Below are positions 34,569 to 62,053 of a stretch of DNA of 64,000 nucleotides, piece after piece (positions within the stretch are counted from its first letter, which is position 1; each line of letters starts with the position of its first letter). The position numbers and the translations under genes are program-made. This DNA is from an uncultured Bacillota bacterium. Lineage in GTDB: Bacteria > Bacillota > Clostridia > Christensenellales > UBA1242. Location of the stretch: NCBI GenBank assembly GCA_946499835.1, contig CAMMTJ010000003.1, positions 55,460 through 119,459 on the forward strand, read 5' to 3'. The notes beneath the pieces were generated by a model that was given only the letters and a program-made list of their open reading frames with translations, did not search any database and was not told the DNA's origin.

Positions 34569-34910
34569 ATGAGAATTAAAAGAGCAGTCAACGCAGTGAA
34601 AAAACGCCGTTCAATCCTTAAAAGCGCAAAAGGATATCGTGGTGCAAAATCAAAACTTTACAGAACTGCAAGAGAACAAGTTATGAAGAGCGGACAATAT
34701 GCTTATATTGGACGCAAACAAAAGAAAAGAGATTTCAGAGCACTTTGGATCACAAGAATCAATGCTGCTTGCAGACTTAACGGAATTTCTTATTCAAAAT
34801 TCATCGCTGGCCTTAAAAGCAAGGGTATCGAACTCAACAGAAAAGTGCTTGCTGATATGGCAGTAAGACAACCTGAGGCTTTTGCTAACCTTGTAGGACA
34901 AGTTAAATAA
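34569..34910 (+). CDS. rplT: 50S ribosomal protein L20
   Basis: [25 protein letters not shown] is canonical L20. Confidence 0.95.
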
Positions 34911-35638
34911 TGCAAAGGCTTAGCGCAAACCAATTTAAGAACTTGAAAAAGCAAAAACGAGAAAACAGATTTTTGCTTTTTTTGGATAATGTCAAAATTA
35001 TCAAAGACGCCATTTCAAATGGTGTGAAGCCTCAACTTGTGTTGCTTGAAAGTGATTCTGCCTATCAAGATACCTTTTCTGGCTATCCAATTCTTATTGC
35101 ATCAAGAAAAGAAATAGAAGCACTTTCTGACAGTAAAACACCACAGGGAGTAGTATGCGTTGCAGAATACATACAAAATGTTGTGAAAAAGCCAAATTCA
35201 AATTTCCTTGTGCTTGATGGACTTCAAGATCCTGGCAATGTGGGAACGCTCATTCGCACAGCCACTGCTTGTGGGTTTGAAAACATATTTTTGCTTGAAT
35301 GTGCACATGTGACAAATTCCAAAGTGGTGAGAAGTTCTGTTGGAACAATCTTTCAAAGCAAAATCTATGAAATGAGCCGTGATGAGTTTGCTAAAAAAGC
35401 AAAAGAATGGGATTTGACTTTATATAAAGCGGACATGGATGGCGAAAATCTTTTTTCAGCCAAGTTTGAAAAGGTTTGTGGTGTGGTCATAGGCAACGAA
35501 GGGCAAGGAGTGTCAGACAAAATAAGTGCTTTATGCAAAAAGGCCTTGTCTTTGCCTATGAAAAAAGGTGTTGAAAGCCTGAACGCTTCAATTTCAGGAG
35601 CAATTATCATGTATCAAATCGCAAAAGATAACTTTTAA
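34910..35638 (+). CDS. TrmH/SpoU-family RNA 2'-O-methyltransferase
   Basis: LVLDGLQDPGNVGTLIRTA, VIGNEGQGV and ESLNASISGAI are the three SpoU motifs. Confidence 0.85.
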   Translation: MQRLSANQFKNLKKQKRENRFLLFLDNVKIIKDAISNGVKPQLVLLESDSAYQDTFSGYPILIASRKEIEALSDSKTPQGVVCVAEYIQNVVKKPNSNFLVLDGLQDPGNVGTLIRTATACGFENIFLLECAHVTNSKVVRSSVGTIFQSKIYEMSRDEFAKKAKEWDLTLYKADMDGENLFSAKFEKVCGVVIGNEGQGVSDKISALCKKALSLPMKKGVESLNASISGAIIMYQIAKDNF

Positions 35639-38021: not shown

Positions 38022-39025
38022 TGGATGACAGATTTATCACAAGCACAAAAAATTTGACGGATGCTGAAATTGAAAATTCTCTAAGACCTAATAGTTTTGA
38101 TGAATATATTGGACAAACAAAAGTTAAAGAGGCACTTACTGTCTATATCAAAGCAGCGAAATCAAGAAAAGAAAGCCTTGACCATGTTCTTCTCTATGGA
38201 CCACCTGGACTTGGAAAAACAACTCTTTCACATATCATTGCAAATGAACTTGGAGCACAATTCAAAGTTACCTCAGGGCCAGCCATCGAACATGCCGCCG
38301 ACCTTGCTGCAATCCTTACAAACTTAAATCAAAATGATGTGCTTTTCATTGATGAGATACATAGACTTAACAAATCAGTGGAAGAAATTCTCTATCCTGC
38401 TATGGAAGACTTTGCACTTGACTTTATTGTGGGCAAAGGTCCTTCTGCAAGAAATATGAGACTTAAAATAAAACCTTTTACTCTCATTGGTGCAACAACA
38501 AGGGCAGGTATGCTGACAAATCCATTGCGTGACCGTTTTGGCGTAATTTGCAGGCTTGAACTTTATTCCACCGATGACCTAAAAGTGATTGTAAAGCGTT
38601 CGGCTGGCATTCTTGGTTGTGAAATTGATGATGATGCAAGTGTGGAGATTGCAAAAAGGTCGAGAGGCACACCACGTATTGCAAACAGACTTCTCAAACG
38701 CATAAGAGATTATGCAGAAGTGCAGGGACAAGGTAAAATCACAAAGGATATTGCTGACAAAACTCTTGATATAATGGAAATTGACGACCTTGGTCTTGAC
38801 AATATCGACAGAAAGATTATGCTTTCAATAATAAATAAGTTTGGTGGTGGCCCAGTTGGACTTGAAACTTTGGCTGCCACAATCAGTGAAGATGCCACAA
38901 CAATAGAAGACGTATATGAGCCATATCTATTGCAACTTGGCTTTATTGCAAGGACGCCAAGGGGAAGAGTTGCAATGCCACCAGCATACGAACATTTGAA
39001 GATAACACCTCCGGAGAAAGACTGA
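38021..39025 (+). CDS. ruvB: Holliday junction DNA helicase RuvB
   Basis: [12 protein letters not shown], Walker [11 protein letters not shown], Walker B FIDEIHRL and the [10 protein letters not shown] motif. Confidence 0.95.
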
Positions 39026-40068
39026 TGGAACAAATAGATGAAAAACTTCTTCATAGATCAACATATTTTTATGACTTACCAGAAGAACTGATTGCACAAA
39101 CTCCGATTGAACCACGAGATATGTCACGCCTCTTGGTTTACAATCGCAAAACAGATAAAATTGAAGACAAAATTTTCCGTGATATAACAGACTATCTTCA
39201 CAAAGGTGATGTGCTTGTCGTCAACAACACACGAGTGCTTCCGGCAAGACTGTTTGGCTATAAAGATACAGGTGCAAAGATAGAGGTTTTGCTCCAAAAA
39301 CGAATAGATTTGAAAAATTGGGAAGTCATTGCAAGACCGTTCAAGAGACTTCAAGAAGGCACAAAAATCACTTTCAGTCAAAACTTGTCTGCAATCGTTG
39401 TTGAAAAAGGTGATTATGGCTCTTGCAAAATCAAATTTGACTTTGACGGAGTCTTTGAACATCGTTTGAGCGAAGTAGGGCAAGTGCCATTGCCACCATA
39501 TATTCATGAGAAACTTAAAAACAAAGAGCGATACCAAACAGTATACGCAAAGATTGAAGGCTCATCAGCAGCACCAACGGCAGGGCTTCATTTCACAAAA
39601 GAATTGCTTGCAAAAATCAAAGATATGGGCGTTGAAATAATAGAAGTGCTCCTGCACGTAGGTCTTGGCACTTTCAGACCTGTCAAAGAAGAAAATATAT
39701 TAGAGCACCAAATGCACAGCGAATATATCGAAATGAGCAAAGAAAATGCTGATATTTTGAACAAGGCAAAAAGAGATGGCAGACGCATAATTGCTGTCGG
39801 CACAACGTCTGTGCGTGTGCTTGAAAGTTGCGTAGATGAAGAGGGGAAGATAATACCACAAAAGAAGGAAACACAAATTTTCATTTATCCTTCTTATAAA
39901 TTCAAAGTGGTTGACGCTCTTATCACCAACTTCCACTTGCCAGAATCAACACTTATCATGCTTGTTTCTGCATTTGCTGGCTATGAAAACACAATGAAAA
40001 TTTATCATCATGCAGTTGAAAATCGATACCGATTTTTCAGTTTTGGTGATGCTATGTTTATTGAATAA
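39025..40068 (+). CDS. queA: S-adenosylmethionine:tRNA ribosyltransferase-isomerase
   Basis: [23 protein letters not shown] and [11 protein letters not shown] motifs. Confidence 0.95.
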
Positions 40069-40123
40069 ACTGCATACTAGCACAAATTGTTGTATGTATG
40101 CAAACATAAATGACACAATATAA

Positions 40124-41260
<1,137 letters not shown>

Positions 41261-41295
41261 GTGTTTTTTTCTTAAAAATCATCTTTTATAAACAT

Positions 41296-41335
41296 GGGAT
41301 ACTTAGGCAATTTTATGCGAGGTATCCCTTTTTTG
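41296..41335 (+). terminator. rho-independent terminator after tgt
   Basis: Stem GGGATAC (41296-41302) pairs with GTATCCC (41322-41328) and is followed by T6. Confidence 0.65.
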
Positions 41336-41437
41336 CAAATATTGTGTTTTGCTTTCGTTTTGTTTGACTTGTACTATAATTTTAATTTATAATTAAAGAG
41401 TAGAAATATTGTTTTCTACAATAAAAGGGGTAACATT

Positions 41438-43027
41438 ATGAGCAGTATAAGTATGTTATGCAATGCTGCTGTAACCGCTGGTGTTGTAACTGGAATTATA
41501 GCCCTAATTCTTGGCGCCGTTTTAGGTATTATTATTTTCAGACTTATAACAAACAAAAAAATCGATAAAAGCAAATCAAATGCTGTAAAGATTATTGAAG
41601 AGGCGTATGCAGAGGCAAAAAGCATAAAAAAAGAATCTATGCTTGAAGCCAAAGAAGAGGCTCAAAAAATTAGAGATGAGGCAAATTCAGAGGCAAAAGA
41701 GCGTAGAGGAGAAATTCAAAAACAAGAAGAACGACTTGACCAACGAGAAGATTATGTTTCAAAAAGAGAGCAAACAGTTGAAAACAAACTTGCTCAAATA
41801 GAATCTGACAGAGAAAAGTTGGAAGAGGAGAAAACAAAACTTACTTCACAAATTGAAGAACAGAAAAAAATAAAAGAAGACATGCTCACCGAACTTGAAA
41901 AAATTTCTGGCATGAGCAAAAAAGACGCAAAAGACCTTCTCATTCAAAATGTAACAGAGGAAGCAAAAAAAGACGCCGGCATCCTTGTGAAACGTATTGA
42001 AGATGAGGCAAGAGAAAACGCAGAAAAAACAGCACGAGAAATTGTGGTGGGCGCTATTCAAAAATGTGCAACCGAAATTTCAAGTGAAATGACAATCACT
42101 TCTGTTCCACTTCCAAACGATGATATGAAGGGGAGAATTATTGGAAGAGAAGGAAGAAACATTCGTTCTATCGAAAGCATGACTGGTGTTGAACTTATTG
42201 TCGATGACACTCCTGAGACCATCACAATTTCAAGTTTTGATCCTGTTCGAAGAGAAATCGCAAGACTTAGTCTTGAAAAACTTATTGTAGATGGAAGAAT
42301 TCACCCAGCAAGAATAGAAGAAGTTGTTGAAAAAGCAACAAAAGAAGTCGATAGAGCAACAAAAGAAGCAGGCGAGGATGCTTGCAACAAAGTTGGCATA
42401 TTCAATTTGCACCCAGAACTTGTCAAGATTATGGGCAGACTTAAATTTAGAACAAGTTATGGACAAAATTGTCTTACCCACAGCATAGAAACATCAATTA
42501 TTGCAGGGCTTTTGGCAACCGAACTTGGAGCCGATGTCAATATCGCAAAACGTGGCGGTTTCTTGCATGATATAGGCAAAGCACTTGATCATGAAGTTGA
42601 AGGAACTCATGTCAGCATCGGTGTTGATCTTGCAAAGAAATATAAAGAAAGCCCAGCAGTCATTCACTGCATTGAAGCACATCATGGAAATGTTCCTTTC
42701 CAAAGCATTGAAGCAATTATTGTCCAAGTGGCAGACGCAATTTCAAGCACAAGACCTGGTGCAAGAAGAGAGAGTTTTGAAAATTATATCAAACGCTTGC
42801 AACAACTTGAAGAGATTGCAAACTCATTCAAAGGCGTTGAAAAATCTTACGCAATTCAAGCGGGAAGAGAAGTGCGCATAATTGTTAAGCCAGAAGAGAT
42901 CAGCGACAACGATGCAATGTTTATGGCAAAAGATATCGCAAAGAGAATTGAAAATGAAATGCAATATCCAGGACAAATCAAAATCAATGTCATAAGAGAA
43001 TCTCGTTTCAGCGATGTGGCAAAATAA
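41438..43027 (+). CDS. rny: ribonuclease Y
   Basis: N-terminal TM helix, a coiled-coil, a KH domain (GRIIGREGRNIRSIE) and an HD domain (LHDIGKA). Confidence 0.95.
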   Translation: MSSISMLCNAAVTAGVVTGIIALILGAVLGIIIFRLITNKKIDKSKSNAVKIIEEAYAEAKSIKKESMLEAKEEAQKIRDEANSEAKERRGEIQKQEERLDQREDYVSKREQTVENKLAQIESDREKLEEEKTKLTSQIEEQKKIKEDMLTELEKISGMSKKDAKDLLIQNVTEEAKKDAGILVKRIEDEARENAEKTAREIVVGAIQKCATEISSEMTITSVPLPNDDMKGRIIGREGRNIRSIESMTGVELIVDDTPETITISSFDPVRREIARLSLEKLIVDGRIHPARIEEVVEKATKEVDRATKEAGEDACNKVGIFNLHPELVKIMGRLKFRTSYGQNCLTHSIETSIIAGLLATELGADVNIAKRGGFLHDIGKALDHEVEGTHVSIGVDLAKKYKESPAVIHCIEAHHGNVPFQSIEAIIVQVADAISSTRPGARRESFENYIKRLQQLEEIANSFKGVEKSYAIQAGREVRIIVKPEEISDNDAMFMAKDIAKRIENEMQYPGQIKINVIRESRFSDVAK

Positions 43028-43033
43028 ACAAAT

Positions 43034-43064
43034 AAAAAGAGGCAAAATTTGTCTCTTTTTTTTG
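43034..43064 (+). terminator. rho-independent terminator after rny
   Basis: Stem AGAGGC (43038-43043) pairs with GTCTCT (43051-43056), is flanked by A and T runs, and is followed by T8. Confidence 0.7.
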
Positions 43065-43109
43065 TTACAAAAAAGCATAAATAGGAAAGGGAGAGAATAT
43101 TATGTTTAC

Positions 43110-43712
43110 ATGGAAAGCATAATGAATTTTTTCAGTGATCATTTTTATGATTTAGTCTGGCTCGCAACAATAATTGTGGCAATGATTCCCACGCTCGAAA
43201 GCAAAATCGCCATTCCTTTCGCAATGAGTGTAAGCGTGTGGGGTGATCTTGCTCTTCCTGCATGGCAAGCCTGCATTTTCGCATTTATAGGCTCAATGTT
43301 GCCAAGTTATTTTGCCTTGTTTTGCGGAAGAAAAATCAAAAAACACACAACAGGTTTTATATCTGAAAAGATTATGACCAGATATAGCGTCAAAACATCT
43401 TTGCTCGACAAACAACAAAACAATTTCAAAAAATATCTTCTTCTCGCAGGTTTCGTAGCTGTTCCATTGCCTCTAACAGGCGTCTGGACGGGCAGTTTAA
43501 TTGCAGGACTGAGTTCTTTGAAAACTGGATACTCATTGCTCGCAATTATGATTGGCGCACTCATTTCTTGCATAGCCATAACTCTGCTTTGCACTCTGCT
43601 TGAAAATTCAATAGGTTATGTGCTTATAGTTTCAATTTTAATTGTTATCGCATTTTTGGTTGTTGATTTGCTAGGAATTATTTTCAAACAATTTAGAAAA
43701 AAACGTGCTTAA
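43110..43712 (+). CDS. small multidrug export protein family (COG2426-like) membrane protein
   Basis: Pattern PTLESKIAIPFA...VPLPLTGVWTGSLIA is typical of this family. The start is uncertain: 43110 or 43122 (see the uORF finding). Confidence 0.7.
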   Translation: MESIMNFFSDHFYDLVWLATIIVAMIPTLESKIAIPFAMSVSVWGDLALPAWQACIFAFIGSMLPSYFALFCGRKIKKHTTGFISEKIMTRYSVKTSLLDKQQNNFKKYLLLAGFVAVPLPLTGVWTGSLIAGLSSLKTGYSLLAIMIGALISCIAITLLCTLLENSIGYVLIVSILIVIAFLVVDLLGIIFKQFRKKRA

Positions 43713-43742
43713 AAAAAGTCCCTTTTGAAGGGGCTTCTTTTT
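43711..43742. terminator. bidirectional terminator between convergent genes
   Basis: 7-bp stem GTCCCTT (43718-43724) pairs with AAGGGGC (43728-43734), flanked by an A7 run on one side and a T-rich run on the other. Confidence 0.6.
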
Positions 43743-45342
43743 ATTTCCAATATTTTATCAAAATGTATCTCTTTATGTAATATCTCAAAGGAAGCAAAAT
43801 CAAAGTTACTCCAATAGGAAGAATAAGCGTTGTTGCGTAAAGAGAAAAGTTTTCACTGTTCATACCAAAGGCGAAATTAAGACCAATAACAACACCGCAA
43901 ACAAGGGCTGTCATAAGCCAAACAAGCCACTGACTTTTCATAGGTGCTGGCTCCCAACTTGTGTATTTTGCATTGTTGTATGCTTTGACTGCAACATCAA
44001 TTAAGTATAGCAAAGGCAACACAATATACAAGAAAGTTGTTGAGGTGTTCAAATTGTTTGTTGAATATAAAATTGCAAACAAGACTGCTGAGAAGACTGC
44101 AAGTCCCAAGAAGGTGAACAGGGTGGTGATAAGCATAAGTTTGTTTGTGTTGTGACTTATCTTTGACTTTTCTTTTGAATAAGATTTGAAAGAAAGGTTT
44201 TGTTTTTTGTAATATTGAGACAAATCTTCATAGTCTAGCATATAGTTTTCGCTTTGCTCATCTTCACTTGCTCGGCTCTTTGAATAAATCCTAGAAATAA
44301 TTTCCTTGTGAGATGGATCAATATTGATGTCACGCTTTGGAGCAGGGAGTTTTTGCTCTCTTTGTGAAATTGGCTCAATTTTAAGTCTAGGAGGCTCAAT
44401 CATTTTAGCTCTGCCAATACTGTTTGAAGAAACACGCTCAGTAATAAGCACACCGTCATCCGGCTTCTCTTCAATGTGGCTTTCTTCTTGTCTGTCTCTG
44501 TTCATTCTAAAAGCAAATTGTTCATCAGTGAGACGAGAAGAGTATTTTGCCTTGTTTTCAAGCAGTGAATTTTTGAACTCTTCCACCTTTGCTTTTGTTT
44601 TTTCATCAGAAACTTGAAGTGGATCTTCTGGCGCAGTCATAGCAATTTGATCTTCTGCAAAACTTCTCTTTTTGCGATAACGTGTCATATCTTTTGAAAT
44701 ATCATAAAGTCTCTTGTTGTATTGTTCTGCTTGCAGGCGATCTTCTTCGCCCAAAACAACTGCATCACTCTTTGCATTTGTTTCCTCTTTTTCAGGCAAT
44801 TCTGTATCCCTTTGTGATGCGGTGATAGGGGAAGGTTCGCTCTGTCTCACTTCTTCAATAGGTTCTTCCTTAATATTTTGCTCTGCAAATTGATCCTGAG
44901 AGGCACTTTCTTCTTGTTTCGCAGGAGATTCACTAAGTGATGAAAAATCAAAGAAATCACTATTCTCTTGCTCTGTCTCATCTTGCTCTTGGAGAGCAGT
45001 CTCATTATTTTGAGAAGGTTTTTCTTCTGCGTTAAAATCTCTAAAAACATTGAAATGATTGCGTTCAAACTCTTCTTTAAGTTCTTGATACACAGTGCGT
45101 CCTTTTTCAGTTATACTGTAATATCTTCTGTTTGGGCCAAGTTCACTGCTTTGCATATAAGAAGAAACCAGCCCTTGTTTTTCCATTCTGGTTAAGTTTG
45201 AATAAACACTTGGTTTTTTCAGGTCTATGTTGCCATTTGAACGTGTTTTAATCTCTGTGATTATGTCAAGACCGTAAAAATCACGTTCTAGCAGGCAATT
45301 TAATATTAAAAATGATAGTTGACCTTTTGCATAAATCTCCAT
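43741..45342 (-). CDS. membrane-anchored PadR-family regulator: N-terminal PadR winged helix, ~300-aa acidic disordered linker, C-terminal 4-TM domain
   Basis: The N-terminus LSFLILNCLLERDFYGLDIITEI...SVYSNLTRMEKQGLVSS...RRYYSITEKG is a PadR-type wHTH. Four hydrophobic helices fall in the last ~150 aa. SD GAGGGA is present. Confidence 0.8.
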   Translation of the reverse strand: MEIYAKGQLSFLILNCLLERDFYGLDIITEIKTRSNGNIDLKKPSVYSNLTRMEKQGLVSSYMQSSELGPNRRYYSITEKGRTVYQELKEEFERNHFNVFRDFNAEEKPSQNNETALQEQDETEQENSDFFDFSSLSESPAKQEESASQDQFAEQNIKEEPIEEVRQSEPSPITASQRDTELPEKEETNAKSDAVVLGEEDRLQAEQYNKRLYDISKDMTRYRKKRSFAEDQIAMTAPEDPLQVSDEKTKAKVEEFKNSLLENKAKYSSRLTDEQFAFRMNRDRQEESHIEEKPDDGVLITERVSSNSIGRAKMIEPPRLKIEPISQREQKLPAPKRDINIDPSHKEIISRIYSKSRASEDEQSENYMLDYEDLSQYYKKQNLSFKSYSKEKSKISHNTNKLMLITTLFTFLGLAVFSAVLFAILYSTNNLNTSTTFLYIVLPLLYLIDVAVKAYNNAKYTSWEPAPMKSQWLVWLMTALVCGVVIGLNFAFGMNSENFSLYATTLILPIGVTLILLPLRYYIKRYILIKYWK

Positions 45343-45360
45343 AGTTTTCCCTCATAATTG

Positions 45361-45390
45361 ATTATACGACATAAAAGAAAGGCAAGTCAA
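45361..45390 (-). promoter_or_regulatory. promoter of the PadR-fusion gene
   Basis: On the minus strand: TTGACT (45390-45385), an 18-bp spacer, then TATAAT (45366-45361). Confidence 0.5.
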
Positions 45391-45423
45391 ATGAAATAAC
45401 TTAATTTATAAATAAATTAAAAA

Positions 45424-45448
45424 CACTAGTATGCACGACATACTAGTG
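45424..45448. promoter_or_regulatory. perfect 10-bp inverted repeat, candidate operator in the divergent promoter region
   Basis: CACTAGTATG-cacga-CATACTAGTG. It lies 8 bp upstream of the -35 of the DUF45 gene and 34 bp upstream of the -35 of the PadR gene. Confidence 0.5.
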
Positions 45449-45455
45449 GAAAAAC

Positions 45456-45484
45456 TTGCAATAGTTTTCCAAAAATGATATAAT
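45456..45484 (+). promoter_or_regulatory. promoter with predicted leaderless start for the DUF45 peptidase gene
   Basis: TTGCAA (45456-45461), a 17-bp spacer, then TGa-TATAAT (45476-45484). The ATG at 45491 is exactly 7 nt after the hexamer and has no SD. Confidence 0.55.
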
Positions 45485-45490
45485 ATAGTT

Positions 45491-46102
45491 ATGAAAATTA
45501 TAAGATCAAAAAGGCGAACAGTGAGTTTGTCAGTTGGCAATGATGGGGAAATCATCGTTCGAGCACCAAAAACTTATCCAGACGAAAAAATTGCAAAGTT
45601 CGTAGAGGAAAAGAGTGGGTGGATAGAACGCCAAAGAAACAAACTCTCAAAAATGAAAGCCTTTGAACAACAATTTGACTTTGAAAACAAGATTTACATA
45701 TTGGGAGAGGAGTGCAGTCCTGCTCAATTTGATATGTCTATGCTCACATTAAATAAAGTTGAACTAAAAAAAGAGATTGAAAAAATATATGAAACCTATT
45801 CCAATGAAGTTCTGCCTGAGATTGCCAAAGAAGTGATAGACAAAACCGGTCTTAAATGCAACAGTATCAAACTCACCAAATCAAAAAGGGTGTGGGGGAG
45901 TTTTGATAGGCAATACAACATGAAACTCAATCACAAATTGATTGTTTTGCCAAGAGAAATTGTCGTCTATGTGGTGATTCATGAACTTTGCCATGGGCTT
46001 CAACTCAATCATTCGCCAAAATTCTGGGCAAATGTCAAATCGTTTTGTCCAAACTATAAAAAACTTAGAAATGCTCTCAAAATGTATGCTTTTCTTTTAT
46101 AA
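45491..46102 (+). CDS. YgjP-like zinc metallopeptidase/hydrolase (DUF45, M48 superfamily)
   Basis: N-terminus IIRSKRRTVSLSV...IIVRAP, and C-terminal HExxH block VVIHELCHGLQLNHSPKFW. Confidence 0.8.
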   Translation: MKIIRSKRRTVSLSVGNDGEIIVRAPKTYPDEKIAKFVEEKSGWIERQRNKLSKMKAFEQQFDFENKIYILGEECSPAQFDMSMLTLNKVELKKEIEKIYETYSNEVLPEIAKEVIDKTGLKCNSIKLTKSKRVWGSFDRQYNMKLNHKLIVLPREIVVYVVIHELCHGLQLNHSPKFWANVKSFCPNYKKLRNALKMYAFLL

Positions 46103-46111
46103 AAACAAAAT

Positions 46112-46138
46112 GGCCACAAAAATGTGGTCTTTTTTTTA
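46112..46138 (+). terminator. rho-independent terminator after the DUF45 gene
   Basis: Stem GGCCACA (46112-46118) pairs with TGTGGTC (46123-46129) and is followed by T8. Confidence 0.8.
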
Positions 46139-46509
46139 ATTAGTTTTTTTTAACCATTTTATCAAAGACGCCTTCATAATAGAGGGTGATACAAGAGGAT
46201 TTATGGCAAGATAAGAGGGTGGCGTCCTGCTATCCTTAGTCTCAAAATAAATTTTCCAACAAATCGTAGTAAAAAATAGGGGAGTTTTCAAGTAGGGAAA
46301 AGAGGAGTGAAGCATTTTAAGAGTTGTTTTATAGAGTTTTGTTAGAAGAGAGAGTTAAAAAAATGCTGTGAGGAGAAGAAATAAAATATAAAGAGGATGT
46401 CTCATTAAAAAAGAGGAAAAGGGGCTCCATTTGAGAGCAAATTGGGAATAGAAAAGATAAGAGGGAAGCCTTTTTTAATGAAAAATTCCACAAATTTCTA
46501 CGCTTATAT

Positions 46510-46539
46510 CTATGCGTAAAAGACAGGTTTTACGCATAG
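46510..46539. repeat. perfect 12-bp inverted repeat with a 6-nt spacer
   Basis: CTATGCGTAAAA (46510-46521) - gacagg - TTTTACGCATAG (46528-46539). The 5' arm overlaps the stop of a 13-codon mini-ORF (46478-46519). Confidence 0.8.
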
Positions 46540-46837
46540 AAAGGCGCATACTAGCGTTAAAATAGCGACTATTTTGTTATTTTTTTATAATTTATTTTTT
46601 ATTATGTTTTTTATATTTTATTTTAGATTCTGTATATAACTTATTTACTTATCTATCAAATTTGCATACTAGTTCTTTATAAAATTCAAACAATACCTTA
46701 TCATTTTTGCTGATTGTTTATCTTTCTTCATTTTGAAAGCAAACTGGAAAATTGTATTCTAAAAGAGATTGAAATTTACAAGTAATTATTCAAAGTCAAT
46801 ATTGAGAATCGATTTGAACGCGTTTTAGAGACGCTTT

Positions 46838-46868
46838 ATAAAAAAAATTTGGAAGAAATTCTCCCAAA
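46838..46868 (-). terminator. candidate terminator after the 321-aa gene
   Basis: On the minus strand: GGGAGA-att-TCTTCC hairpin (46865-46851) followed by AAATTTTTTTT. Confidence 0.45.
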
Positions 46869-47834
46869 TCATTTCATATTGGTCAAATGGTTCAAAAGTC
46901 TCGCAAAACCAGAAGCACTATTTCCGCACAATTTGTCTTTGAATATACTGTTTTCTGGATTTTCAACAGACTTAAATTCTCTCATTGAATGCATACTGAG
47001 ATAATTTATAATCTTCACAAACGTCTTGTAAGCCTCATTTTCTTCAAAAAGATCGTCTGGGCAATTATAAAGCACGCTTTCCATAAAAATCTGGTTTGGC
47101 ATATAGTTGTTTATATCATAATACAGCACATTTAAGATTTTGAGCACATCGACAAAGACTCCCCCAACACGCTCAATTTTTTCATTTAATGACTGTATTC
47201 GCGTGCTAAAATCAACTGAGATATAGCCTTGCTTTTTATTAACAAAATACTTGAATTTTTCACCATCATAAAGCACAAGAATAAGCACAATTTGTGTGTT
47301 GCTTCCAAAATCTTCTTTTCCAACTACTGTGATGCGATTGTCATTGAGATACAAAAGCGTGGTTGGAAGCATATATTTGGCAATCGCTGTTTGAAGATCT
47401 TCTGCCAAATTATATATATTATAATTTGCTGGGTCAAAATTGATTTTTACCTCTTGCAAACTCTCTTCTTCTTTTTTCTTTTTGCGTTTTGAAACTTTTT
47501 TCTTTACTTTGCGATTGTTCCAAGCATATACAATTCTGTTTTTGAAATTTTTCCAAAAACGTGAACTTCGAGAAGTGTTCAAATCAATTTGAGCGTTGTC
47601 AACTGCCAGAAAATAAACAAATTTTGAATTGTCCGTCATTGCGCCATTCAAAAGTTCGTTTGCTGGTTGCAAAATAACATTGTTCAAGTTGACATAAGAA
47701 ATCTGTTTCGAAAGATCTTCAACGGCATTCGAAACTATTGCTTTCATTTTCTCATCAACAGCATCAATATATTCAATATTATCATTTCGAACAATGCTTT
47801 CAATGAGCCCTCTTGTTATCGCACCTCTTCTCAT
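46869..47834 (-). CDS. hypothetical 321-aa protein, possibly a divergent nucleotidyltransferase-fold protein, translationally coupled to serS
   Basis: SD AAGGGG overlaps the serS stop, with an 11-nt gap. The C-terminal region LKILNVLYYDIN...IFMESVLYNCPDDLF resembles the helical signature of Pol-beta/CD-NTase-like proteins. There is no clean GS...DxD motif. An internal K-rich insert (KKKVSKRKKKKEEE) is present. Confidence 0.7.
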   Translation of the reverse strand: MRRGAITRGLIESIVRNDNIEYIDAVDEKMKAIVSNAVEDLSKQISYVNLNNVILQPANELLNGAMTDNSKFVYFLAVDNAQIDLNTSRSSRFWKNFKNRIVYAWNNRKVKKKVSKRKKKKEEESLQEVKINFDPANYNIYNLAEDLQTAIAKYMLPTTLLYLNDNRITVVGKEDFGSNTQIVLILVLYDGEKFKYFVNKKQGYISVDFSTRIQSLNEKIERVGGVFVDVLKILNVLYYDINNYMPNQIFMESVLYNCPDDLFEENEAYKTFVKIINYLSMHSMREFKSVENPENSIFKDKLCGNSASGFARLLNHLTNMK

Positions 47835-47845
47835 TCAATCCCCTT

Positions 47846-49132
47846 TTATTTTTTTGGAAAAATTTGAGTTTTTCCACCCATATATGGTTGCAAACATTTT
47901 GGAATAGAAATTGAGCCATCTTCTTGTATATTATTTTCCAAAAATGCAATAAGCGCCCTCGGTGTTGCCAAAACTGTGTTGTTGAGAGTGTGCAAATAAT
48001 ATGATTGTTTGTCATTTTTTGCTTTTATGCCAAGTCTTCTCGCTTGTGCATCACCAAGTGTTGAACAAGAACATACTTCAAAATATTTCTTTTGTCTTGG
48101 ACTCCATGCTTCAATGTCACAACTTTTCACTTTCAAATCAGCAAGGTCGCCACTGCAACATTCAAGTGCTCTGACTGGAATATTCAAATTTCTGAAAATT
48201 TCAACTGAGAAATGCCACATTTTGTCATACCAAGCCATGCTATCTTCTGGTTTGCAAAGGACGATCATTTCCTGTTTTTCAAATTGATGAACTCTATAAA
48301 GTCCACGTTCTTCAAGTCCATGTGCGCCAATTTCTTTTCTAAAACATGGAGAATAAGATGTCATAGTTATAGGCAAAGATTGTTCATTGATGATTTGTCC
48401 CTTAAATCTTCCAATCATGCTGTGTTCACTTGTGCCAATAAGATAGAGGTCTTCGCCTTCTATTTTATACATCATGGCTTCCATTTCAGCAAAACTCATG
48501 ACGCCATTGACCACATCGCTTCTTATCATAAATGGTGGTATTGCATAAGTGAAGCCTTTGTCAATCATAAAATCTCTGCCATAAGCAAGCATAGCCTCAT
48601 GAAGTCTTGCCGCATCACCTATGAGATAATAAAACCCCGTGCCACTTGTTCTTCCAGCGCTTTCTTTATCAAGTCCACCTATGCTGTCAAGAATATCGGC
48701 ATGATATGGCACTTCAAAACTTGGGACTTTGGCTTCACCATACCTTTCAATTTCCACATTTTCTCTGTCATCTTTGCCGATAGGAACGCTTTTGTCAATA
48801 ATATTTGGAATGACCATCATGTCTTTCTTTATTTTTTCGGCAAGTTCTTCTGTCTGCTTTTCAATCTCAACAATCTTTTGATTGTTTTGCACCACTTGTG
48901 CCTTGATTTTCTCAGCCTTGTCAACTTCTTTATTTTTCATAAGCATACCAATTTGTTGACTTAGGCTGTTTCTCTGTGCACGGAGATCATCTCCTTGCTT
49001 TTTTAATTCGCGGATTTGACTGTCAAGAGCCAAAACCTCATCAACATATCCAAGTTTTTCATCTTGAAATTTCTTCTTGATATTTTCTTTCACGAGGTCT
49101 GGATTTGTCCTAATCAAATTTATGTCAATCAT
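47846..49132 (-). CDS. serS: seryl-tRNA synthetase
   Basis: N-terminal coiled-coil arm (MIDINLIRTNPDLVKENI) and class II motifs (FRKEIGAHG, RVHQFEKQE, GDAQARR). Confidence 0.95.
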   Translation of the reverse strand: MIDINLIRTNPDLVKENIKKKFQDEKLGYVDEVLALDSQIRELKKQGDDLRAQRNSLSQQIGMLMKNKEVDKAEKIKAQVVQNNQKIVEIEKQTEELAEKIKKDMMVIPNIIDKSVPIGKDDRENVEIERYGEAKVPSFEVPYHADILDSIGGLDKESAGRTSGTGFYYLIGDAARLHEAMLAYGRDFMIDKGFTYAIPPFMIRSDVVNGVMSFAEMEAMMYKIEGEDLYLIGTSEHSMIGRFKGQIINEQSLPITMTSYSPCFRKEIGAHGLEERGLYRVHQFEKQEMIVLCKPEDSMAWYDKMWHFSVEIFRNLNIPVRALECCSGDLADLKVKSCDIEAWSPRQKKYFEVCSCSTLGDAQARRLGIKAKNDKQSYYLHTLNNTVLATPRALIAFLENNIQEDGSISIPKCLQPYMGGKTQIFPKK

Positions 49133-49155
49133 GATATTCTCCTTTATTTTCAGTT

Positions 49156-49185
49156 ATTATACAATTTTCTGACAATTTAAGTCAA
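49156..49185 (-). promoter_or_regulatory. serS promoter with a short leader and no T-box
   Basis: On the minus strand: TTGACT (49185-49180), an 18-bp spacer, then TATAAT (49161-49156). The ATG is about 24 nt downstream, behind AAGGAG. Confidence 0.55.
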
Positions 49186-49342
49186 CTAAACATCAAACAT
49201 ATCAAAACTTTCTTGCTATGCAAACAAGTCAAATTGTCGTTATATAATGCAAAAACAAAATTCGATAAAGTTATACCACAATATCTTGTGGCTTGTATGA
49301 GCATAATAGCACATATATGCTTTATTTATTGTCAATTTTTGT

Positions 49343-49371
49343 TAGACTTAAAAATAAAAAGATGATATAAT
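49343..49371 (+). promoter_or_regulatory. candidate promoter with leaderless start for the recombinase gene
   Basis: TAGACT (49343-49348), a 17-bp spacer, then TGa-TATAAT (49363-49371). The ATG at 49378 is 7 nt after the hexamer, with no SD before either 49372 or 49378. Confidence 0.45.
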
Positions 49372-49377
49372 ATGAAT

Positions 49378-50427
49378 ATGGCTCAAAGTTCTTTTTATCA
49401 AAAAAGAGATTTGCAAAATAGAATCAAGACTGGCAAATATATTGAAAACTTGCCTGAGTTTTGCTATGACTTTTTGATTGCGATTGAAAACAACACATCT
49501 TCACTTACAAGATATAATTATGCCATGGATCTTTCTATATTTTTTGACTATCTCGGCAAGTTTGTTTTCAATAAACCTCGCAAAGATATAACTCTTGACG
49601 ATATTGAAGATTTGAGAACAAAAAATATTGAGCAGTATTTATCATACCTCACCTATTATGAAGACGATGAAGGCAAAGTGATGAAGAATGGCGAAAACGG
49701 AAAGGCAAGAAAACTTGCTTCAATTCGTTCTTTATTCAAATATCTTTTCAATCACGATCTTATCTCAGCAAACATTGCAAGCAAGATTGAGACGCCAAAA
49801 CTGCATAATAAAGAGATCATCCGTCTTGAACAAACAGAAGTTGAACATATGCTTTCTTCTATTGAAAACCCTCAAACCTTTTCTGAAAGGCAAAAGAATT
49901 ACAACAAAAACACTTTTGAAAGAGACAATGCCATTGTCACTCTATTTCTTGGCACAGGCATTCGTATCAGTGAACTGGTTGGACTCAATGTAGAGAGTTT
50001 TGATTTCTCTCAAAACGCCTTTACAGTCACTCGTAAAGGTGGAAATCAAAGCACTCTTTACTTTTCAAATGAAGTTGCAAGAGCACTCAAAACTTGGCTT
50101 GAAAAGAGAGCCACACTCGGACTTGACAAAGATGAAAAGGCAATGTTTATTTCCTTGCAAGACAAACGCATCTCAATACGCGCAGTTGAGAATTTGGTTA
50201 AAAAATTTGCAAAGGAAGCCTCCCCTCTTAAAAAAATATCACCTCACAAACTGAGGAGCACTTTTGGCACAAACTTGTATCGCGAAACAAAGGACATCTA
50301 TATTGTTGCCGATGTGCTGGGGCATAAAGACGTCAACACAACCAAAAAGCACTACGCCGCAATAAGCGAAGATATGCGAAAATCTGTGGCAAGCGCGGTA
50401 ACTCTACGAAAAGATGAAAATAAATAA
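49378..50427 (+). CDS. tyrosine recombinase, XerC/XerD family
   Basis: Core-binding N-terminal domain (LPEFCYDFL...SSLTRYNYAMDLSIFFDYL) and catalytic residues in GIRISELVGL, HKLRSTFGT and LGHKDVNTTKKHY. An alternative start lies at 49372. Confidence 0.85.
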   Translation: MAQSSFYQKRDLQNRIKTGKYIENLPEFCYDFLIAIENNTSSLTRYNYAMDLSIFFDYLGKFVFNKPRKDITLDDIEDLRTKNIEQYLSYLTYYEDDEGKVMKNGENGKARKLASIRSLFKYLFNHDLISANIASKIETPKLHNKEIIRLEQTEVEHMLSSIENPQTFSERQKNYNKNTFERDNAIVTLFLGTGIRISELVGLNVESFDFSQNAFTVTRKGGNQSTLYFSNEVARALKTWLEKRATLGLDKDEKAMFISLQDKRISIRAVENLVKKFAKEASPLKKISPHKLRSTFGTNLYRETKDIYIVADVLGHKDVNTTKKHYAAISEDMRKSVASAVTLRKDENK

Positions 50428-50599
50428 AAATTTTTTATTTTGTTTGTATAATATTTTCGCCACTGCACACAATAGTTGCGTGAAGGAAATATGCTTCACA
50501 TTAACGGAAAGAAGTTTGGGATTTACTTTGCCTAGACTTCTTTTTGTTTTTTAACTTTTTATATAATCATTAAAAAACCACTCATTTTTTTTGAGCGGT

Positions 50600-51823
50600 C
50601 TAATTATTTTCACATTCTTCAATCATCCAATCAGTGTAAACGCCATATCCTTTTGTTGGATCAGACAAAAACACATGTGTCACTGCTCCCACAATCTTGC
50701 CATCTTGCAAGATAGGAGATCCACTCATACCTTGAACAATACCTCCCGTCAGGTCAATAAGACGTTTATCTTTCACCCTGAACACAAGGCTTTTGTCATC
50801 ACTTTTGGCTTGATAACTTGCTTTGATAATTTCTATATCATATTCTTCTCGCAAGCCACTGACTGATGAGATAATCTTCGCTTTCCCTGGTTTTACAGAC
50901 AATCTGCCACCTACTTTTGCGGTAAGATTGCTGTCAACAAGTTTGCTTATATCATTCAGTTTTCCGCTTATTCCAAACTTGTTGTTGACAGCAACTGTCC
51001 CACTTTCATCACTTTGCAAAAACAAACATTTCAGTTGACCTGGGGCATTTTTCTGTCCTTTATTGATTCCCACAAGAGAGCAATTGAAAACCTTTCCGTC
51101 CGTTATCGGCAATATGTTTTCCGTTTGTCCATCTGTTATGGCATGACCAAGTCCACAAAAATTGTGAGTGTCTTTATGTACAAAGGTTAGCGTTCCCACC
51201 CCTGACATATCATCTCGCCCCCAGATGCCAAGTTTATATCCTTCTTCGCTTTTGACAAGTGGCACCGAGCATTTTTGCAATTTGTTGCCACGGATAAATT
51301 CAATCTCCACTTGATCATCGCTGACATTTTGCAAAATCTCTTCCACATCATCGACATTACCAGCTTCTTTATTATTGATTTTGGTGATGATATCACCCGC
51401 TTTGAGTTTTTTGTTTTTGATTTCTTTTATTTGACCGCCATCGGCAGAATATGATGTGTCCGCCATCACAATAACACCATCTGAATTGACATTTATGCCG
51501 ATAGGCACACCGCCAACATAAACCTCTTCTTCTGGCAAAATGGAAACTTTGACTTTGCGAATAGGTATAAAGCCAAACAGTTTGAAAACCACAATGCCCT
51601 CTTTCTTCTTTTCGCTTCCGACTTCTGTTTCACTGCCTTCAAACTCTGTTTTTACAAAGCCACCAAAAGATGCAGATTTGTTGGCTTCATCAATTTCTGA
51701 ATAATTTGTTTTGAAATCCTCTGGCAGTGCAAAAATGTCCAAGAATTTTACGTTTGCAAACAAGGTGACAAAGACAAGTAAAAAAGAAAAAATGCACATG
51801 ATTATCTTATCTTTTTTTGTCAT
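50600..51823 (-). CDS. spoIVB: SpoIVB peptidase (S55), sporulation signalling protease
   Basis: N-terminal TM helix, a PDZ domain (LKAGDIITKINNKEAGNVDD), and the S55 catalytic region (GLGHAITD, GMSGSPIL). Confidence 0.92.
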   Translation of the reverse strand: MTKKDKIIMCIFSFLLVFVTLFANVKFLDIFALPEDFKTNYSEIDEANKSASFGGFVKTEFEGSETEVGSEKKKEGIVVFKLFGFIPIRKVKVSILPEEEVYVGGVPIGINVNSDGVIVMADTSYSADGGQIKEIKNKKLKAGDIITKINNKEAGNVDDVEEILQNVSDDQVEIEFIRGNKLQKCSVPLVKSEEGYKLGIWGRDDMSGVGTLTFVHKDTHNFCGLGHAITDGQTENILPITDGKVFNCSLVGINKGQKNAPGQLKCLFLQSDESGTVAVNNKFGISGKLNDISKLVDSNLTAKVGGRLSVKPGKAKIISSVSGLREEYDIEIIKASYQAKSDDKSLVFRVKDKRLIDLTGGIVQGMSGSPILQDGKIVGAVTHVFLSDPTKGYGVYTDWMIEECENN

Positions 51824-61201: not shown

Positions 61202-62053
61202 ATGAAAATGACTTCATTTGTTATCGATAAGCCATACAAATCAATATTTTTCTTTCTTAAAAACAATGGCTTTTCTGAAAACTATATCTCCAACTTGCGA
61301 AAAACTTGGGGAAACTTTGTCTTAAACGGCATTGAAGTCAATATAAGAGCCCCTCTTAAAAAAGGAGATGTTCTCAAAATAAACAGCAGCCCAAACCAGA
61401 AAACCACTATTATGCGTTGCATACTACCACTAGATATTGTATATGAAGATGAATACTACTTACTAATCAACAAACCAGCGGGACTTTCAACCTCTCCATC
61501 ACGATCACATTATGCACAAAACCTCTCAGGAGCAATATGTGCATATATGGACAAGTTTGATCCCGAATTTGTTCTGCGTATTGCTGGCCGTTTGGACAAA
61601 GATACATCTGGAATTGTCATAGTTGCAAAAGACAGCATTTCAATGAAAGAACTTAAAATTCTTGACAAAACATATTATGCCATTTGTGAAGGTGTTATTG
61701 ATAAGGATGAGATTGTTGACAAAAAAATTTTAACCATTACTGAAAATGGCGTCAACAAACAAAAACGAGAGATATCCCCTCTTGGCAAGGAGGCAAAAAC
61801 ATTTGTCCATCCTATCAAAAATGATGGACAGCACACTTTGATTAGATTGAACCTTGAACATGGCAGAACCCATCAAATAAGAGTGCATTTGGCAAGCATT
61901 GGGCACCCTCTTGTTGGCGACACTCTTTATGGCAAACTTTCACTTTTTATAAACAGATGTGCACTCCACTGCCGAGAAATAAAGTTTTATCATTATATAA
62001 AAAAGGAAGAGATTGTGATAACCACACCTCTTCCAAAAGATTTCTTTCTATAA
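61202..62053 (+). CDS. RluA-family pseudouridine synthase
   Basis: S4-like N-terminus, catalytic block RLDKDTSGIVIVAKD, and HQIRVHLASIGHPLVGDTLYG. Confidence 0.88.
   Translation: MKMTSFVIDKPYKSIFFFLKNNGFSENYISNLRKTWGNFVLNGIEVNIRAPLKKGDVLKINSSPNQKTTIMRCILPLDIVYEDEYYLLINKPAGLSTSPSRSHYAQNLSGAICAYMDKFDPEFVLRIAGRLDKDTSGIVIVAKDSISMKELKILDKTYYAICEGVIDKDEIVDKKILTITENGVNKQKREISPLGKEAKTFVHPIKNDGQHTLIRLNLEHGRTHQIRVHLASIGHPLVGDTLYGKLSLFINRCALHCREIKFYHYIKKEEIVITTPLPKDFFL

Follow-up and report, generated by a model that had tools for sequence, protein, structure and literature searches.

A predicted membrane-integrated PadR-type regulator of uncultured gut Clostridia, its operator-like palindrome and its recurrent YgjP-like neighbour

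Introduction

Transmembrane transcription regulators, defined as proteins with a DNA-binding domain and at least one transmembrane (TM) region, are widespread and are abundant in gut bacteria; some of them are controlled by proteolysis or by partner proteins, and PadR was the DNA-binding domain in 158 (0.31%) of those counted in a census (PMC10269533). In this study we analyzed a 64,000-nucleotide (nt) stretch (the window) of contig CAMMTJ010000003.1 of an uncultured Bacillota bacterium, which carries a gene for a protein of this class, with a PadR domain at its N-terminus and four TM helices at its C-terminus. The protein, for which both parts of the above definition hold, is referred to below as PadR-TM.

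The closest putative functional analogue of PadR-TM is BcrR of Enterococcus faecalis, in which, as Gauntlett et al. reportedly described in 2008, an N-terminal DNA-binding domain is followed by four TM helices. BcrR is a membrane-bound one-component sensor of bacitracin with no obvious extracellular domain (PMC3968067). Both proteins combine a DNA-binding head with four TM helices, lack an obvious external domain and would act as sensor and regulator in a single protein. BcrR binds an inverted repeat near its target promoter, and a palindrome predicted to be bound by PadR-TM likewise lies near promoters. The two differ in that BcrR is short, has an Xre-type helix-turn-helix and has no 300-amino-acid (aa) motif-bearing linker, whereas the head of PadR-TM is a PadR domain. 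The target of BcrR is an adjacent ABC transporter operon (bcrAB-type), while the neighbours of PadR-TM encode a YgjP-like and an Sm_multidrug_ex protein, and the TM domain of BcrR shows no sequence or fold relationship to the PadR-TM bundle.

Other membrane-bound regulators are more distant. ToxR, TcpP and CadC combine an OmpR-type winged helix-turn-helix (wHTH) with a single TM helix and a sensor domain in the periplasm, in contrast to the four TM helices, nearly absent external domain and very long, motif-bearing cytoplasmic region predicted for PadR-TM; no Trans_reg_C match was found with Pfam in the window protein or in 21 homologues. PadR proteins are mostly repressors. Those of the PadR-s2 type (LmrR, CdPadR1, BC4206) share the fold of residues 1-100 of PadR-TM (TM-score ~0.8), but they are soluble dimers of ~110 aa with small-molecule effectors at the dimer interface, whereas the PadR-TM head is the first fifth of a membrane protein. 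The PadR-s2 protein CdPadR1 (CDR20291_0991) autoregulates via A+T-rich inverted repeats in its own promoter (PMC5050560). The TATG-N5-CATA core of the PadR-TM operator differs from the ATGT-N8-ACAT and TACT-N11-12-AGTA motifs. In the dyad of HAAS and PadR-like wHTH, a PadR-like wHTH is functionally coupled to a membrane-associated signalling protein, and the dyad has been put forward as a membrane-stress alternative to two-component systems (PMC11237479). It consists of two separate proteins, one of them a HAAS (DUF1700/DUF1129) partner, whereas PadR-TM is a direct fusion to an unrelated four-TM domain; within the sensitivity limit of the hidden Markov models, Pfam gave no match (E <= 0.1) to the HAAS domain (DUF1700/DUF1129/DUF1048) in 21 family members or in the neighbours. 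The literature on membrane-tethered PadR yielded no characterised case.

A further comparison is with the metalloprotease-repressor pairs BlaR1/BlaI, ImmA/ImmR and IrrE/DdrO. As in these, the gene of a (winged-)helix repressor adjoins a gene for an HExxH zinc hydrolase and the two have an operator region in common, but the hydrolase at the PadR-TM locus belongs to PF01863 and not to M56 or COG2856, it is the regulator and not the peptidase that lies in the membrane, roughly one locus in two shows the pairing, and cleavage is not known to occur. What is already known is thus the class of transmembrane transcription regulators and the PadR-s2 fold with autoregulation through inverted repeats. 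What is new is the fusion, throughout the family, of PadR to an unrelated four-TM domain without a structural match, together with a long motif-bearing tether, a defined operator and a recurrent divergent zincin gene, apparently leaderless.

Results

Domain architecture and predicted structure

Full-length members of the PadR-TM family have 500-660 aa and share 45-60% identity in homologue alignments. Pfam identified PF03551 at residues 13-86 of the window protein (E=2e-19, 69.8 bits, cutoff 27) and in all 21 homologues inspected; NCBIfam gave PadR-type matches only, all of them sub-threshold. In a full-length AlphaFold2 (AF2) model, built on 73 homologues, the head comprises helices at residues 2-19, 26-34 and 43-56 and, after a wing (59-77), a further helix at 79-94. 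The top Foldseek matches of this head were LmrR, CdPadR_0991 and BC4206 (target TM-score 0.7-0.83, 96 aligned columns), and its modelled fold is that of the PadR-s2 subfamily, LmrR-like. The small soluble format of that subfamily (~110 aa) is not found here, the protein having 533 aa and four TM helices. The stretch of the recognition helix, LKKPSVYSNLTRMEK, is almost entirely invariant among the 21 homologues and largely so among the 73.

At the C-terminus, four hydrophobic segments (residues ~401-429, 434-455, 470-495 and 498-523) were modelled as a helical bundle with a predicted local distance difference test score (pLDDT) above 90; the full-length model and another AF2 model, of residues 359-533 alone, agree in this. 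Mean counts of lysine plus arginine in 26 family members were 5.0 before TM1, 0.5 in the loop between TM1 and TM2, 3.5 between TM2 and TM3, 0.2 between TM3 and TM4, and 3.8 in the C-terminal tail. By the positive-inside rule, such counts predict that both ends of the protein are cytoplasmic and that only two loops of ~10 residues lie outside; this N-in/C-in topology is consistent with an N-terminal DNA-binding domain. Polar or helix-breaking residues are conserved within the membrane (P443, D449, Q471, W472, W475, N489, G493, P509 and P518). P443, D449, N489, G493 and P509 are retained in nearly all members of the close clade, and N489, G493 and P509 down to 20-30% identity. The conservation of such residues inside the helices argues that the bundle does more than anchor the protein.

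The C-terminal region belongs to no Pfam family in the window protein or the 21 homologues. A DUF6040 match (residues 372-488, E=0.0076) was dismissed as chance, since only one of the 21 homologues shows it. A profile of the TM domain found no relative by sequence in the PDB, and Foldseek with the separate high-confidence TM model found no fold relative (best E-value 1.1, TM-score at most 0.3).

The middle region (residues 101-400) has a net charge of -19 and is abundant in E, S, K and D. Its motifs were read from two alignments, of 21 and 73 full-length homologues. The first part, residues 104-198, differs among homologues in both length and sequence, except for the invariant F131, D132, F133 and S134 of the DFFDFSS motif (128-134). 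It is followed by a segment with predicted helices (AF2) at 199-225, 228-235, 242-267 and 273-282, which contains YNKRLYDISKDxxKYRKKRSFAEDQIA (208-235) and EEFKNS (254-258), and in which N209, D214, I215, S227, F228 and Q232 are invariant in the 73-homologue alignment. The last part, residues 283-398, has a low mean pLDDT and helices at 344-355 and 371-380 (AF2). Its conserved motifs are DDGVFITxR (296-303), IEPPRLKI (315-322), LPAPKRDxxIDPSHKEIxSRxYSK (332-355) and, nearest the membrane, LYDYxDLxxYY (368-378) and QNIxFxxY...HNTNKL (381-402), of which HNTNKL directly precedes TM1. Residues S227, D296, I300, T301 and L374 persist in relatives of 22-30% identity, and the genuinely variable, low-confidence parts are confined to ~107-197 and 283-367. 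Since conserved motifs alternate with variable stretches, and since the lengths of members on metagenome contigs range from 376 to 931 aa, the middle region appears to behave as a tether of variable length that bears conserved docking or signalling motifs.

A sequence-only reading of this DNA had proposed a 533-aa open reading frame (ORF) with an N-terminal PadR wHTH, four C-terminal hydrophobic helices and, between them, an acidic, disordered, low-complexity linker of ~300 aa. The ORF listing, the PF03551 match and the fold match bear out the PadR part, and hydropathy, the AF2 bundle and the positive-inside topology bear out the four helices. The linker is indeed acidic, but its conserved motifs and the helices at 199-282 show that it is not featureless low-complexity sequence.

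The acidic linkers of the distant clade (e.g. P0155, P0163 and P0170) carry two conserved motifs, LQQxNLF and Q(Y/F)DLF, whose Q and F are shared by 90% or more of the sequences. In the window protein, DFFDF takes the place of such a Q-x-D-L-F type motif. The bacterial beta-clamp-binding consensus is QL[SD]LF, to which the Q-x-[DN]-L-F motifs of the distant clade look similar.

Family and distribution

A search with the full-length sequence gave 220 matches, and a scan of species-representative genomes located the gene in 67 metagenome-assembled genomes (MAGs) labelled Clostridia, Eubacteriales, Christensenella or Firmicutes. Residues 205-533 used as the query in an exhaustive HMMER search against 1.84 billion cluster representatives recovered 80 proteins only. 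Ten distant relatives retrieved through this C-terminal region alone were tested, and all ten begin with PadR; since this is so, the fusion of PadR with the TM domain is obligatory across the family and defines it, and is no accident. A profile of the distant clade recovered 529 further proteins from Clostridiales MAGs, which are unnamed or annotated as 'PadR family transcriptional regulator'. PadR-TM represents a distinct family that had not been described before and is known only from uncultured Clostridia of the gut.

The intergenic palindrome and its flanking promoters

The region between the PadR-TM gene and the divergent ygjP gene contains a perfect operator-like palindrome (Table 1). 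In 53 of 64 related loci its core is located no further than 260 nt upstream of the gene, usually as a perfect match, and in most loci it lies at -88 to -131 from the ATG. Comparison of the 53 sites revealed twelve positions that are invariant or nearly so and a single variable pair (G/T in the left half, C/A in the right half), which occurs as GC in 14 sites, TA in 13, GA in 13, TC in 10 and TT in 3. The pair is thus complementary in 27 sites and non-complementary in 26, compared with ~25 complementary sites expected if the half-sites were independent. Base identity is conserved without compensatory change, which indicates that the palindrome is a conserved protein-binding site and not an RNA hairpin. 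Loci of the distant clade contain GTAyTATG-N5/6-CATArTAC at the matching position. Scans of 39000-51000 for Rfam families and tRNA genes found nothing.

On the PadR-TM side of the palindrome, TTGAC(T/A)-17/18-TATAAT and an AGAGGT ribosome-binding site are kept in all species of the clade, and in some species an extra half-site or a degenerate copy overlaps the -35 box. On the ygjP side the layout is palindrome, 7-10 nt, -35-like hexamer, 17 nt, TATAAT, 5-8 nt and ATG; at least 11 related loci show this arrangement, the palindrome and the ATG being separated by 43-47 nt. From this, ygjP appears to be a leaderless-type gene whose promoter abuts the operator. In the window, positions 45479-45493 contain no ribosome-binding site before the ygjP ATG.

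The predicted operator geometry is the classical picture of a regulator and a divergently transcribed target. We infer that the PadR head binds the palindrome and autoregulates, on the basis of (i) the conserved position of the site, (ii) the near-invariant recognition helix, which parallels the invariance of the half-site, (iii) the presence of no second PadR gene within the 64-kb window and (iv) the precedent of CdPadR1.

Table 1. Position of the PadR-TM gene, its parts, and associated sites and genes in the window
Feature	Position	Strand	Description and basis
Membrane-anchored PadR regulator gene	43741..45342	-	533 aa; positions include the stop codon; ORF listing
PadR wHTH plus one C-terminal helix, PadR-s2 type, residues 1-103	45034..45342	-	PF03551, Foldseek, pLDDT ~86-94
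Variable acidic stretch, residues 104-198	44749..45033	-	DFFDFSS inside; pLDDT <50 at 107-197
DFFDFSS motif, residues 128-134	44941-44961	-	Homologue alignments
Predicted helical segment, residues 199-282	44497..44748	-	Motifs YNKRLYDISKD..KYRKKRSFAEDQIA and EEFKNS
Juxtamembrane region, residues 283-398	44149..44496	-	DDGVFIT, IEPPRLKI, LPAPKRD..IDPSHKEI, LYDYxDLxxYY, HNTNKL
Four-helix TM bundle, residues 399-533, predicted N-in/C-in	43744..44148	-	Hydropathy, pLDDT >90, positive-inside count
Predicted PadR-TM promoter	45361..45390	-	TTGACT, 18-nt spacer, TATAAT, then GAGGGA ribosome-binding site; promoter scan 11/12
Operator-like palindrome	45424-45448	.	CACTAGTATG-cacga-CATACTAGTG; core TAKTATG-N5-CATAMTA at 45427-45445
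Predicted ygjP promoter	45456..45484	+	TTGCAA, 17-nt spacer, TG-extended TATAAT, ends 6 nt before ATG; scan 10/12
Divergent YgjP-like (DUF45) zinc-hydrolase gene	45491..46102	+	PF01863, E=6.4e-44, 150.9 bits (cutoff 26)
Sm_multidrug_ex (PF06695) small membrane-protein gene, tail-to-tail with PadR-TM	43014..43712	+	Pfam E=3e-21
Operator remnants, queA-tgt interval	40072..40106	.	Half-site GCATACTAG and TATGCAAACATA
Degenerate operator remnant, divergent serS/xerD-like interval	49294..49309	.	Intact sites at orthologous place elsewhere
Second perfect operator core	61408..61426	.	TATTATGCGTTGCATACTA; inside RluA-type pseudouridine synthase gene 61202-62053 (+)

The divergent ygjP gene

The YgjP-like protein has the motif HELCH (HExxH) at residue 164, no hydrophobic segment, and weak matches to WLM and SprT-like domains; a comparison with the PDB found nothing. 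Counting only the immediate upstream neighbour, a divergent ygjP adjoins PadR-TM in 34 of the 63 loci of the close clade and in 25 of the 60 distant ones (59/123 in total). At least 12 gene families occur on the far side of ygjP in the distant clade, and the downstream neighbours differ too. The pair has survived many rearrangements, in clades that share only 25-30% identity, which argues that its members are functionally linked. The remaining loci, roughly half, have no ygjP beside the gene and yet retain the operator; ~20 of the 53 operator-bearing loci are without ygjP. Each linker motif is equally frequent with and without an adjacent ygjP. In a mirror-tree analysis (partial Mantel), the correlation of PadR-TM with YgjP was 0.72 versus 0.88 with the conserved neighbour unk321; all fast-evolving neighbours correlate, and there is no specific signal.

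These results bear on three further points of the sequence-only reading. The perfect palindrome that it had noticed between the two genes lies exactly at 45424-45448 and has the conservation of a regulatory site. The divergent gene, described there as having a Zn-metallopeptidase fold, is confirmed by PF01863 and HELCH. The survey of co-occurrence of PadR-TM with DUF45 genes, which it had called for, revealed a pairing that is recurrent (adjacent in 59/123 loci) but, as judged from adjacency, probably not obligatory, since the other loci have no ygjP beside the gene.

In several related loci the operator and ygjP are further apart, by ~630-770 nt (L017, L021, L049) or 1.7 kb (L030). One or two small genes with promoter-like sequences are inserted there, so the divergent pair is separable without loss of the operator. 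The 'YgjP' of a paper on queuosine-precursor transporters was set aside as irrelevant: it is a candidate transporter in that work, with no preQ1 transport.

Further operator-like sites

Besides the sites in front of PadR-TM genes, ~0.9 Mb of related loci contained 13 additional perfect sites, all of them intergenic, compared with ~0.07 expected (composition estimate). Full sites are present in the queA-tgt interval of eight loci, 26-200 nt before tgt. The divergent serS/xerD-like interval has perfect sites in L031 and L063 and a one-mismatch site in L030, and a one-mismatch site lies ahead of rny in L013. In the window itself, the full pattern with at most two mismatches occurs five times (0.57 expected) and the half-site GCATAMTAG nine times (0.48 expected); remnants persist in the queA-tgt and serS/xerD-like intervals (Table 1). 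Judging from their placement, these sites suggest a small regulon that turns over between species.

A one-mismatch copy of the operator (35151-35169) lies within a SpoU-type RNA methyltransferase gene (34910-35638, + strand), and a one-mismatch site occurs at a similar position in a likely orthologous gene of ~244 aa in L016, L018, L029, L040 and L061; this copy could reflect coding constraint or be a real internal site. An RluA-like homologue, related to the gene that contains the second perfect core of the window, directly adjoins ygjP in the distant loci L077, L083 and L097. The 766 nt between the convergent ygjP and 321-aa genes (46103-46868) contain no ORF of note, Rfam match or tRNA; this stretch has two half-sites GCATACTAG (46546 and 46664) and an imperfect inverted repeat at ~46505-46540.

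Discussion

We give about an even chance to the reading that the gene encodes a membrane-integrated, one-component PadR regulator which autoregulates and co-controls ygjP. A dimer of PadR-s2 wHTH heads would bind the 19-bp inverted repeat ~100 bp upstream of its own start codon, and would in this way control its own promoter and also, in loci that have ygjP, the divergent leaderless promoter of that gene; in some species, control may extend to tgt(-rny-Sm_multidrug_ex) and to the serS/xerD-like intergenic sites. The protein would remain in the membrane, its long and partly disordered cytoplasmic region being the tether that allows the head to reach the nucleoid. From polymer dimensions, ~300 disordered residues could span tens of nanometres, and the short conserved motifs of the tether may serve partner proteins or signal transmission. 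Because its outside loops have only ~10 residues and it has conserved polar residues within the bilayer, the four-TM bundle is a candidate sensor of a lipid, a membrane-soluble compound, the state of the membrane or a partner membrane protein. The architecture, topology, three-part conservation, conservation and position of operator and promoters, and recurrent gene pairing were computed directly; the binding of the palindrome by PadR, the sign of regulation, the kind of signal, and action from the membrane with no release of the head are what we infer.

Several observations weigh against this reading. No recognisable site was found in 11 of the 64 loci. The distance from the operator to the -35 box of the regulator's own gene varies from ~16 to 60 nt, and the centre of the operator lies ~80 bp upstream of the predicted transcription start of that gene, which is unusual for simple steric repression; given this remote and variable placement, autoregulation could have either sign and more than one mode. 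In L027, L034 and L035 a perfect site is placed between convergent genes, spoIVB and the xerD-like gene, where a promoter is not expected, and neither these three sites nor the site within a gene at 61408 fit the picture of a small regulon. A role as a pure tether would leave the many conserved motifs of the linker unexplained. Finally, all members of the family were obtained from metagenome-assembled genomes or metagenome contigs, and none from a cultured organism.

The sequence-only reading had suggested that the membrane-tethered regulator is either released by proteolysis upon a signal or sequesters its operator DNA at the membrane. Of these we prefer the second, in the sense of action on DNA from the membrane; proteolytic release is possible but unsupported, as nothing computed points to cleavage. 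Regulated proteolysis, in which the PadR head would be kept inactive at the membrane until the YgjP-like zincin or another protease cuts a linker motif and frees a soluble PadR dimer for the operator, in a reversal of BlaR1/BlaI or ImmA/ImmR, is in our opinion unlikely. It would account for the persistence of the divergent pair in 59 of 123 loci, across clades of 25-30% identity and despite rearrangement, for the intact HExxH and weak WLM/SprT-like similarity of the YgjP-like protein, and for the strongly conserved short linker motifs that lack an explained role; moreover, metalloprotease-repressor gene pairs (BlaR1/BlaI, ImmA/ImmR, IrrE/DdrO) are an established theme. However, the roughly half of the loci without an adjacent ygjP keep the operator and all linker motifs at equal frequency, a shared operator abutting the -35 box of ygjP suits the relation of regulator and target as well or better, and the literature on PF01863 gave no protease activity toward a transcription factor. 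In addition, YgjP is soluble, its family is widespread outside the PadR-TM context, and the mirror-tree partial correlation is lower for YgjP (0.72) than for the unrelated unk321 (0.88). We regard as rather improbable the specific scheme in which the zincin, repressed via the shared operator, cleaves a linker motif that a membrane signal has exposed and releases the PadR head, in a reversal of the BlaR1/BlaI logic; if true, the cleavage pair would provide the first physiological substrate for the large, function-less DUF45/YgjP family.

Two other explanations concern the palindrome. A DNA-membrane tether in the manner of Noc or RacA, perhaps tied to replication, repair or segregation via the linker motifs, has in our view only a slight chance of being correct. 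Such a role would be in line with the over-representation of sites in the window (full pattern 5 vs 0.57, half-site GCATAMTAG 9 vs 0.48), with sites at places where one would not look for a promoter, within a gene (61408) or flanked by convergent genes (L027, L034, L035), with the abundance of genes for DNA transactions nearby (lexA, xerD-like, recN, ruvB, mutL) and with the resemblance of the Q-x-[DN]-L-F motifs of the distant clade to the beta-clamp consensus. Yet all 13 extra perfect sites are intergenic, most of them ahead of genes, and the sole universally conserved site is in the promoter region of PadR-TM itself, as one typically sees with transcription factors that autoregulate; DFFDF, and not Q-x-D-L-F, is what the window protein has, and the site scan spans 64 kb plus flanking regions and is not a genome-wide density. 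That the palindrome is an intrinsic terminator or RNA hairpin unrelated to PadR is essentially excluded. A scan does flag 45448-45424 (- strand) as a stem-loop followed by a T-rich run, in loci without ygjP the palindrome lies downstream of the co-directional unk321, and other copies follow the queA stop codon or lie between convergent genes. Nevertheless, the palindrome of the window is located between divergent genes, with nothing to terminate. It is base identity and not pairing that is kept (in 26 of the 53 sites the variable pair could not form a base pair), the A+T-rich stems have only two to four G-C pairs, the spacing to both promoters is conserved, and no Rfam family matches.

Membrane-integrated one-component regulators are common in gut bacteria, but few have been studied, nearly all of them ToxR/CadC-like or BcrR. 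If the membrane-integrated PadR regulator proposed here is confirmed, it would be the first member of the PadR type to be described together with a defined family. This family offers a conserved operator, a predicted small regulon, a putative sensor domain without a solved relative and conserved linear motifs in the tether. It also provides a concrete context for the uncharacterised YgjP/DUF45 zincins and the Sm_multidrug_ex family of membrane proteins, and shows what comparative sequence analysis alone reveals about regulation in uncultured Clostridia.

Gene neighbourhood

The gene order in the close clade is serS, a conserved 321-aa protein (unk321), an optional ygjP on the other strand and PadR-TM; from the other side, Sm_multidrug_ex, rny and tgt converge on PadR-TM. 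Among the related loci, L050 has 99% identity to the window. The wider neighbourhood consists of housekeeping genes (lexA, xerD-like recombinase, serS, recN, spoIVB, ruvB, queA, tgt, rny, thiI, rnhA, mutL and miaA), and PADLOC gave no match at E<=0.01 for four proteins of the locus. Since these surroundings are of the housekeeping type in all species and there are no matches to defence systems, the gene is a stable resident of the chromosome and not part of a mobile island.

Of 62 close loci, 49 have Sm_multidrug_ex directly downstream of PadR-TM. The gene is also found downstream in four distant loci, where it ends a different operon (argR-recN, not tgt-rny). That its product is a partner of the TM bundle is speculation. 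In the window, the longest ORF of this gene overlaps the end of rny (41438-43027) and the Pfam domain does not begin before residue 62, so that translation probably starts at an internal ATG, e.g. one giving MESIMNFF.

The 321-aa protein (46869-47834, - strand) is encoded behind serS, in the same direction, in nearly all related loci, and has no Pfam, NCBIfam or PADLOC match. Its homologue in L078 has a precomputed match to PF26305 (CD_NTase_C), and the window protein gave a non-significant match in the PDB to a cGAS/DncV-like nucleotidyltransferase (CD-NTase; E=0.29). It may be a housekeeping protein with a nucleotidyltransferase fold.

In one related locus (L081), genes for a homologue of the Phage_F major capsid protein and for a REP_ORF2-G2P replication initiator are located between the serS/310-aa genes and ygjP (L081:3293-7246), and a tyrosine recombinase gene lies upstream of serS. 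This block looks like an integrated microvirus.

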